Shown in pieces: positions 49,547 to 50,671 of a DNA stretch of 64,000 bases. The notes under the pieces are model-generated. The model made no database searches. It worked only from the letters and a program-made list of their open reading frames with translations, and had not been told where the DNA came from. Source of the stretch: Escherichia coli. Its GTDB lineage: Bacteria; Pseudomonadota; Gammaproteobacteria; Enterobacterales; Enterobacteriaceae. How positions within the stretch are numbered: position 1 is the stretch's first letter; each line of letters starts with the position of its first letter. The stretch lies in the NCBI RefSeq assembly GCF_003334385.1, contig NZ_QOWN01000013.1; one strand, written 5' to 3'. Both the position numbers and the translations under genes were made by a program.

Positions 49547-50245
49547 CTAAAGTTGGATACTTAAGAAATGCTTCATAATTCAGTAAGGCATTAGCATAAT
49601 GGAAATAAAAGTGCAGAGACTATCTCTATGGATGATTAATACTGTCTTTTTATTGTCACCCATAAATAATCACCAGACTAATACTATCAACTTGATATTT
49701 GAAATGTGATCACTTGACTTTTGATACGTTATTTTATAACGGTTAACATATTTATAAAAACAACGGCCGTGCCACACGTCCGTTTCAATACTTAACGCAC
49801 ATGTATTTTGGTTTAGTCATCATCCGGTTATATGTATTTTAGCCAGGAACAGGTTAAATCATTCCTATATAACTCAAAAATTGAAACCTTATTCTCATGT
49901 CATGCTTATATTCATTATTATCGTTATATAAAAAGGCAACCATAATGTTTAGCAAATTGGCACAAAGTAGCATAAAGGCTATGTTTTAATTACAGGATGT
50001 TCAGTCATTTGAATGTATAACATTATAGCTAAACAAATCTAAAACGAAGTCAATAATTTATTGCTTTCACAAAATCTCATTTTGTTTAACATCCATTGAG
50101 ATTCCTTGCTTTAAATTTTATTTTATATAAGCCATCATTTTAATTAATTTATTTTTTTGAGGGGGGGGTAATATACTCATATGCAAAATCAAGAAATAAA
50201 CATCCTAATGAACCATATTAAATACCGTGGGATAAGACATAACAA

Positions 50246-50569
50246 ATGAAGTGGATAGTAATTGACACGGTAATTCAACCTACATGTGGTATATCTTTTT
50301 CAGCCATATGGGGTAATATGAAAATGATCATCTGGTATCAATCTACTATATTTCTCCCTCCTGGCAGTATATTTACACCGGTTAAGTCTGGTATTATCCT
50401 TAAGGATAAAGAATATCCTATTACTATTTATCACATCGCACCATTCAACAAGGATTTATGGAGTTTACTCAAAAGCAGTCAAGAGTGTCCTCCAGGAGAA
50501 AGCAAAATAACAAATAAATGTTTACATAATAGTTGCATTATAAAAATATGCCCATATGGGCTCAAGTAA
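50246..50569 (+). CDS. iraM: Anti-adapter protein IraM (RpoS stabiliser)
   Basis: 107-aa [36 protein letters not shown]...; AT-rich. Confidence 0.8.
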
Positions 50570-50611
50570 TGGGCTTCATATAAATATGCTCGATATGCTA
50601 TTAATAATATC

Positions 50612-50648
50612 CACATAAATAAAACAACGGGCGTGTTATACGCCCGTT
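50612..50648 (-). terminator. Rho-independent terminator downstream of icd
   Basis: Minus-strand hairpin aacgggcgtat...acgcccgtt followed by gttttatttat. Confidence 0.65.
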
Positions 50649-50671
50649 TCAATATTTAACACATGGAGAGA

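Follow-up and report, generated by a model that had tools for sequence, protein, structure and literature searches.

When Mg2+ is scarce, the anti-adaptor protein IraM stabilises RpoS by blocking RssB. Chromosomal iraM shares PF11183 and phrog_4407 with the IraM/IraL/RssC family, whose members are strain-variable prophage or island genes (PMC4045071), e.g., IraL on the potB island of strain CFT073 and the iraM-like genes in Stx2 phages (PMC4045071). The chromosomal gene occupies a fixed and decayed locus, not an active prophage. In K-12, iraM has been described as "found on the e14 prophage", and CFT073 as being without it (Hryckowian et al. 2014, PMC4045071). The e14/icdC system is the second one to which the locus described here can be compared. 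In MG1655 (L084), e14 sits between icd and icdC-iraM; like the iraM locus, it has its own icd 3' end with a terminator and a short flank, and the resident end is displaced to the far side. However, e14 is a 15-kb excisable prophage with intE/xisE and an intact 165-nt icdC, whereas no integrase is left in the iraM residue, and of its displaced block K-12 retains just the 47 nt of the terminator. Thirdly, in phage 21 and related lambdoid phages such as 4A7, ev017, and 1W, the terminator is identical to the one next to icd in the present locus (copy 2, see below); it is joined to the terminal ~153-164 nt of icd, and int lies alongside. In such phage-21-like blocks, int and the TTTTGGGGAA repeats lie directly beside the terminator, whereas at the present locus the iraM 3' flank adjoins it instead, and none of the sequenced phage-21-type members with an icd block has an IraM homologue.

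The window, i.e., the whole 64-kb stretch of DNA analysed here, is K-12-like E. coli DNA that runs opposite to MG1655 and is without the e14 prophage, and the region is 100% identical to that of K-12-type strains lacking e14. Its main features are listed in Table 1. In the window icd is uninterrupted, e14 is absent and iraM is present, as it is in thousands of e14-free genomes; the statement that iraM is located on e14 (PMC4045071) is therefore inexact. Rather, iraM lies just outside the e14 boundary, on an older remnant with its own displaced terminator block. The reading preferred in this study, to which a probability of about 0.8 is given, is that the two repeats on either side of iraM are the remains of a duplication made by an integrating icd-specific temperate phage, and that iraM is a leftover of the decayed prophage.

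Table 1. Features of the window around iraM, with positions counted from the first letter of the window
Feature	Position	Strand	Basis or remark
bluF	46696-47985	+	annotation
bluR	48190-48921	+	annotation
ycgX (DUF1398)	49142-49546	+	annotation; neighbour beyond copy 1
ymgL	49599-49709	+	annotation; neighbour beyond copy 1
Flank X, left of copy 1	49707-49756		homologous to phage DNA flanking the e14-like terminator copy
Copy 1	49757-49803	-	putative displaced, decaying icd terminator copy; probable relic of an old icd 3'-end + terminator block
Left junction of the putative prophage residue, deletion scar	49804-49864		~226 nt of type 3b missing, including the icd-coding relic
AT-rich upstream/promoter region	49865-50123	+	common to the type 3 island, 74% identical to L121/L124; contains ymgK
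ymgK, annotated small ORF	49945-49989	+	
22-codon ORF, relic 5' end of an ariR/ymgB-like gene	50181-50249	+	translation
iraM	50246-50569	+	annotation; anti-adaptor protein, PmrD-family fold by Pfam
iraM 3' flank	50561-50614		common to type 3, score 32, 0/2000 shuffles
Terminator + icd-end block	50619-50835	-	matches the attP-adjacent 'terminator + last ~164 nt of icd' of phage-21-like phages
Copy 2	50621-50666	-	predicted functional icd terminator; also downstream of convergent iraM
icd (isocitrate dehydrogenase), attachment target	50672-51922	-	ORF + annotation
rluE, nudJ, mnmA	beyond icd		

The first-pass annotation had described two similar segments of about 47 bases, about 85% identical and about 870 bp apart, and this description holds. 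The top-ranked direct repeat of the repeat search pairs 49757-49799 with 50621-50663 (43 nt, 84% identical, spacing 864), and a gapped local alignment of 49757-49803 with 50621-50666 gives 39/45 identities, 6 mismatches, and one 2-nt indel. The alignment score of 53 is 13 SD above that of 1000 dinucleotide-preserving shuffles (19.7±2.5, maximum 33), which places the similarity far above chance, and the identity reaches beyond the stem into the flanks ('TTTCAATA.TTAAC..ACATG'). No third copy of the repeat was found within the 64-kb window, and two copies in 64 kb is not the pattern of dispersed repeats such as REP/BIME or ERIC; a query with the junction hit 1-4 places per genome (median 2), and the places listed were all icd or icd fragments. 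The left flanks of the two copies are dissimilar, with no similarity between 49707-49756 and the left flank of copy 2, and the repeat therefore does not extend leftward in the window. An extension past 'AAAACAACGG', hinted at by MAFFT, was rejected, as 1816 of 2000 shuffles scored as high. On the other side, the alignment stops at 'CACATG(T)', and 49804-49965 has no similarity to the icd 3' coding end.

Copy 2, which had been taken for the hairpin terminator just downstream of icd, does adjoin the icd stop codon, 5 nt away. On the icd strand it folds into a 9-bp stem with a GTTTTATTT tail (T-run) at -18.4 kcal/mol (z -4.4), the GC-rich hairpin plus T-run of an intrinsic terminator, and the fold predicts a strong terminator for icd. 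It forms a hairpin on the iraM strand too, and it is identical to the terminator of phage 4A7 and to the single copy in genomes lacking iraM. K-12 copy 1, in contrast, does not have this structure: the terminator hairpin is not its minimum-free-energy fold (z -0.64), and only a residual stem of 5 bp is left. In other lineages, including L101, the 9-bp hairpin of copy 1 is intact, and three iraM+ lineages besides K-12 have AAAAACAACGGGCGTGCCATACGCCCGTTTCAATACTTAACGCACATGT as copy 1, which is 3 substitutions and a 2-nt indel away from copy 2 (~93% identity). The K-12 copy has three extra substitutions, all of them stem-breaking, which is the pattern of a drifting duplicate without function, and the figure of 85% exaggerates the original difference between the two copies. 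Hairpin plus T-run motifs are compositionally constrained, so that two GC-rich terminators in AT-rich DNA might resemble one another by chance or convergence. The probability of this is negligible in view of the distance from the shuffles, the identity through flanks that are not part of the stem, the closer match of copy 1 to copy 2 elsewhere, and a copy spacing that equals the size of the presence/absence polymorphism described below.

Between the copies, both iraM and the AT-rich promoter that had been noted earlier are present; they are not alone, since ymgK and an ariR-like relic share the interval. The relic, a 22-codon ORF absent from the annotated features of the interval, aligns with the start of an intact 86-aa YmgB/AriR gene of L121 (score 36, 0/2000 shuffles), the identity of which is given by Pfam PF10798 and RefSeq annotation. 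The ORF ends in a TGA that overlaps the start codon of iraM (ATGA), an arrangement by which translation of the two could be coupled. A 28-nt inverted repeat, 82% complementary, connects 50358-50385 in iraM with 51707-51734 in icd and is probably due to chance. No integrase or other mobility gene was found among the ORFs between the copies in K-12, and no integrase in the type 3 island described below; nor was a recognisable att core detected between the copies in K-12 or type 3. With no integrase between the copies, the locus is a relic and not an element, and the 864-bp interval is best described as a putative prophage residue.

A less-decayed allele of the locus is represented by the type 3 island, which is found whole in 19 of 5,426 complete E. 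coli genomes, e.g., EC42405, and in its fullest form in L124 and L126. In window orientation, it begins with ycgX and ymgL-like DNA, followed by a terminator copy in the place of copy 1 and by ~226 nt; next come the intact 86-aa AriR/YmgB-family gene, iraM (80% nt identity to K-12), iraM's own terminator, and a stretch of 1.7 kb, and finally IS fragments, a 455-aa ORF, an e14-like end of ~100 nt, the terminator, and icd. The 1.7 kb are ~90% identical to a prophage 'lysis protein-trkG' stretch of other E. coli genomes and are a Rac-like Rz'/trkG fragment (trkG of K-12 being part of the Rac prophage). The 455-aa ORF, which adjoins icd in type 3 (L121 10777-12144), matches two PHROG families of unknown function, both of them weakly, and was found in 130 blocks of the contig collection.

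The type 3b form connects copy 1 to icd itself. In L124, copy 1 (15945-15982) runs on into the icd stop codon and the last codons; copy 1 and this icd relic are collinear over 70 nt with the allele's own terminator and icd end (score 78 versus 18±2 in shuffles), and the icd ends align as TTAACATATTCTTGAT versus TTACATATTCTTGAT, with 13 exact bases across the last icd codons inside the stop. The icd-coding relic is short, ~16 nt, and was found only in the rare type 3b allele. The collinearity through the icd stop indicates that copy 1, like icdC, is an icd 3' end that was displaced together with its terminator. The K-12 locus can be linked to this allele at several points, since 49805-49857 aligns with L124 ~15719-15668 (score 32, 0/2000 shuffles) and the type 3 homology of the iraM 3' flank ends a few bases before copy 2, marking the right-hand deletion junction. 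The junctions of the K-12 residue and the ariR start being homologous to type 3 (each 0/2000), it can be argued that both alleles had one origin followed by deletions, and the K-12 interval would thus be a deletion-trimmed version of a type 3-like island. In the iraM region, the K-12 type (type 1) and type 3 are 74-80% identical, while their flanks are 94-97% identical; the lower identity of the iraM region allows, on these comparisons, for independent acquisition of related phages or for import from another lineage. L121/L122 were considered as a non-coli outgroup because of flanks 93.5% identical to the window; they are labelled E. coli and 96.9% identical on the icd side, and are treated here as a divergent allele.

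Phages and elements that target icd carry the same kind of block. e14 has a diverged terminator copy beside its own icd 3' end, and homology of the terminator copies of e14 (MG1655) and of the e14-like element of Citrobacter ends at the same 'AAAACAACGG' edge. The flank of e14 has two homologous counterparts, one beside copy 1, on its left, and the other where the type 3 island adjoins icd: 49707-49756 is collinear with the e14 flank with a score of 27, matched by 10 of 2000 shuffles, and its score against the icd-proximal flank of type 3b was matched by 5 of 2000. In the free lambdoid phage 4A7, which has a phage-21-type integrase, the order is xis-int, TTTTGGGGAA arm repeats, terminator, and the last 153 nt of icd, and the phage is 95.9% identical to window positions 50619-50835 over 217 nt. 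Overall, 26 phage records, phage 21 among them, cover at least 80% of this block at ~90-96% identity. The extent of the shared block places the putative recombination core of these phages ~164 nt inside icd, at window position 50835, and not in the terminator. In ATCC 25922, the far side of the prophage reads ycgX-ymgL-terminator-168-nt icd fragment-sitABCD element, which is the same architecture in a less decayed state. Together, the phage-borne blocks and the integrated cases identify a duplicated 'icd end + terminator' as a known signature of these phages.

Repeated TTTTGGGGAA motifs adjoin the icd terminator not just in phage 4A7 but also in E. albertii, Citrobacter werkmanii, Superficieibacter, and Yersinia artesiana (for all five, L004 ~9300-9345, L006, L008, L010, and L130 2450-2495). 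Integrases of phage-21-like elements probably use them as arm-binding sites, and if so, icd serves as an attachment site in several genera. Among B2 single-copy genomes (L128, L129 ~760-810), the displaced terminator plus icd fragment varies just 3' of the hairpin, one version matching the E. albertii copy; such variation is consistent with repeated replacement of the block by different phage-borne versions.

A terminator could also have been copied by tandem duplication or illegitimate recombination without any phage, iraM having been inserted separately. For the window taken by itself this has some appeal, as only the 47-nt terminator is repeated there and the interval is without an integrase. 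It is nonetheless very improbable, given that e14-like phage ends are homologous to what lies left of copy 1, that type 3 has an e14-like end beside copy 2 and prophage genes between the copies, that free phages carry the same block, and that the same architecture is forming in ATCC 25922 and MG1655.

The gene between the copies is itself of a kind carried by phages. In lambdoid prophages of E. coli and E. albertii, homologues 55-70% identical to IraM are encoded between Q, the antiterminator, and the lysis genes. Others are neighbours of stx2 in Stx phages or belong to a plasmid or island, and an IraM homologue is encoded in 46 phage records. IraM matches phrog_4407 over its full length (E 4e-51), YcgX matches phrog_413 (E 1.5e-41), and TrkG has a PHROG match with an E of 0. 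At the DNA level, chromosomal iraM resembles the prophage copies in its coding region only (~70% nt identity) and not in the flanks. No phage with both the icd block and an IraM homologue was found, the 30 icd-block records and the 46 IraM records being without overlap; that iraM and the block travelled on the same phage is therefore something we infer, as is the order of events given below. Successive integrations could also have stacked unrelated remnants.

A prophage origin of the locus would involve the following steps. The incoming phage, like e14 and the phage-21 family, would have carried the last ~150-165 nt of icd plus the terminator next to attP, with ~45-100 nt more beyond the terminator if it was e14-like. 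Recombination at the core inside icd would fuse the phage copy to the icd body and push the resident icd 3' end and terminator to the far side of the prophage, the icdC of K-12 being such an end. Copy 1 would then be the displaced resident block and copy 2 the block now serving icd, while ymgK, the ariR-like stub, and iraM would be what remains of the prophage, iraM as a phage cargo (moron) gene. Deletion on the left may have removed the icd-coding part of copy 1, ~226 nt in all, and deletion on the icd side ~5 kb (the iraM terminator, Rz'/trkG, the 455-aa ORF, and the e14-like end), leaving iraM to abut copy 2. Copy 1, without a job, would drift, with three K-12 substitutions breaking its stem, and the direct repeats would offer a substrate for precise deletion of iraM, the most likely source of the B2 single-copy allele and of at least one non-B2 loss.

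Of the marks of a prophage footprint, the locus has the duplication of the icd end and terminator, phage-type DNA between the copies, and genomes with a single copy, and it lacks an integrase or excisionase inside and an extant phage with block and cargo. The type 3b relic, the phage-type insert, the phage-21-like blocks, and IraM as prophage cargo together suggest that the repeats are remnants of a longer att-associated duplication and not att cores. The first-pass annotation had proposed that iraM arrived on an element integrating in the icd-3' region and leaving att-like direct repeats. Of this, the integration footprint stands, on account of type 3b and the phage blocks, and so does a prophage origin, on account of the type 3 content; the repeats as att cores and the present interval as an element, without an integrase, do not.

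The iraM interval is present in 3,942 of the 5,426 complete E. coli genomes, and in 1,104 ycgX is joined to icd or an icd fragment via exactly one copy, without iraM; the K-12-type two-copy iraM locus accounts for ~71% and the precise single-copy allele for ~20% of the genomes. In single-copy genomes the ycgX-icd interval is shorter by ~864 bp, i.e., the spacing of the repeats. ATCC 25922, ATCC 11775 (the type strain), and Nissle 1917 are among these genomes, and we take all three to be members of phylogroup B2. E. coli without iraM carries exactly one copy, and the check proposed in the first-pass annotation, whether the repeat is present in genomes lacking iraM, therefore comes out in favour of an integration. 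The single copy is a chimera in which the left flank and five-A run of copy 1 are followed by the hairpin and right side of the copy-2 type. A crossover at another position would give a single-copy allele whose hairpin is of the copy-1 type; none was found in a search for such alleles, and all had the same junction. In L003, an iraM-less genome outside B2, the left flank has 0 differences over 740 nt from an iraM+ strain and 20 differences from B2. The same genome has an IS200C copy (3669-4368) inserted precisely where the left flank meets the single terminator hairpin.

The chimeric junction would also be produced if a ~0.86-kb element with iraM only had integrated within the terminator, the 47-nt repeats being the attL/attR cores and the B2 allele the ancestral attB; the left flank of copy 1 joined to copy-2-type sequence is what a crossover in the shared 'AAAACAACGGGCGTG' gives, and the uniform junction of all single-copy alleles fits as well. 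Such an element is improbable, because the interval has no integrase or mobility gene, the type 3b duplication included icd coding sequence around an insert of at least 6 kb of prophage-type DNA, known icd phages recombine ~164 nt inside icd instead of in the terminator, and L003 is a single-copy allele that arose secondarily.

With at least one loss outside B2 being clearly secondary, recombination between the repeats probably deletes iraM, and the comparison of alleles makes it the likelier source of the single-copy allele in general. Secondary deletion is favoured because the cassettes diverge more than the flanks (20-26% versus 3-6% between the K-12 type and type 3), because the single copy corresponds to copy 2 and not to copy 1, and because of the L003 haplotype. 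A prophage scar could, on the other hand, coexist with a B2 allele that represents the ancestral site before any occupation, either maintained as a polymorphism or brought in again later. All single-copy alleles having the copy-2-type hairpin with no crossover further to the right would agree with this, as would the star-like flank divergences and the early branching of phylogroup B2. We regard it as on balance unlikely, since the excess of cassette over flank divergence suggests that the insertion predates the species radiation, since the B2 copy equals copy 2 base for base, which a crossover between copy 1 and copy 2 explains directly, and since L003 lost iraM secondarily on an iraM+ haplotype. 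We infer that the B2 allele is probably the derived state; an ancestral empty site would look alike.

Outgroups were sought with an Icd-query genome scan, in which, among the matches listed, only E. albertii and a few Citrobacter and Enterobacter appeared, and no Escherichia other than E. coli with an empty ycgX-icd junction. E. albertii has a prophage remnant at icd and is without bluF-ycgX, and therefore does not polarise the locus. A YcgX homologue search for outgroup loci returned paralogues located elsewhere or in prophages, and L105, a candidate because its RluE sequence is shared with E. albertii, proved to be an ordinary iraM+ E. coli contig.

The DNA beyond copy 1 may have a comparable history. 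The 43-50 nt that precede copy 1 on its left are similar to the phage DNA adjoining the terminator copy of e14, and E. albertii prophages have a YcgX homologue, 70% identical, with Nu1 on one side and the lysis genes on the other. From the phage-family match of YcgX and the e14-like flank, ycgX and ymgL are possibly cargo of a still older prophage layer; a third, older block left of ycgX was searched for in the window and not found. As a tentative extension that we hold to be doubtful, the DNA downstream of icd might be a layered graveyard of successive icd-targeting prophages, in which displaced terminator blocks bound the layers and each layer donated a small stress or biofilm regulator, with ycgX/ymgL as the older layer, ariR-like/iraM as the next, and e14 or the sitABCD phage on top. 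If this were true, the leftover repeats would be built-in deletion sites, and iraM, and with it PhoP-dependent RpoS stabilisation, would be a presence/absence trait between phylogroups, lost in B2, where iraL is located elsewhere.

A literature search joining iraM, icd, and prophage found no paper in the library searched. The phenomenon is a known one, of which the locus is a fresh and well-resolved instance, and no new mechanism is revealed by it. Its significance is that a well-studied regulator, IraM, is placed on a specific and datable structure, a probable decayed prophage that used the icd site before e14, and that the presence/absence polymorphism of iraM would have a simple mechanical reason. 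More generally, repeated lysogeny at one att site may stack cargo genes and leave recombination-prone repeats behind.
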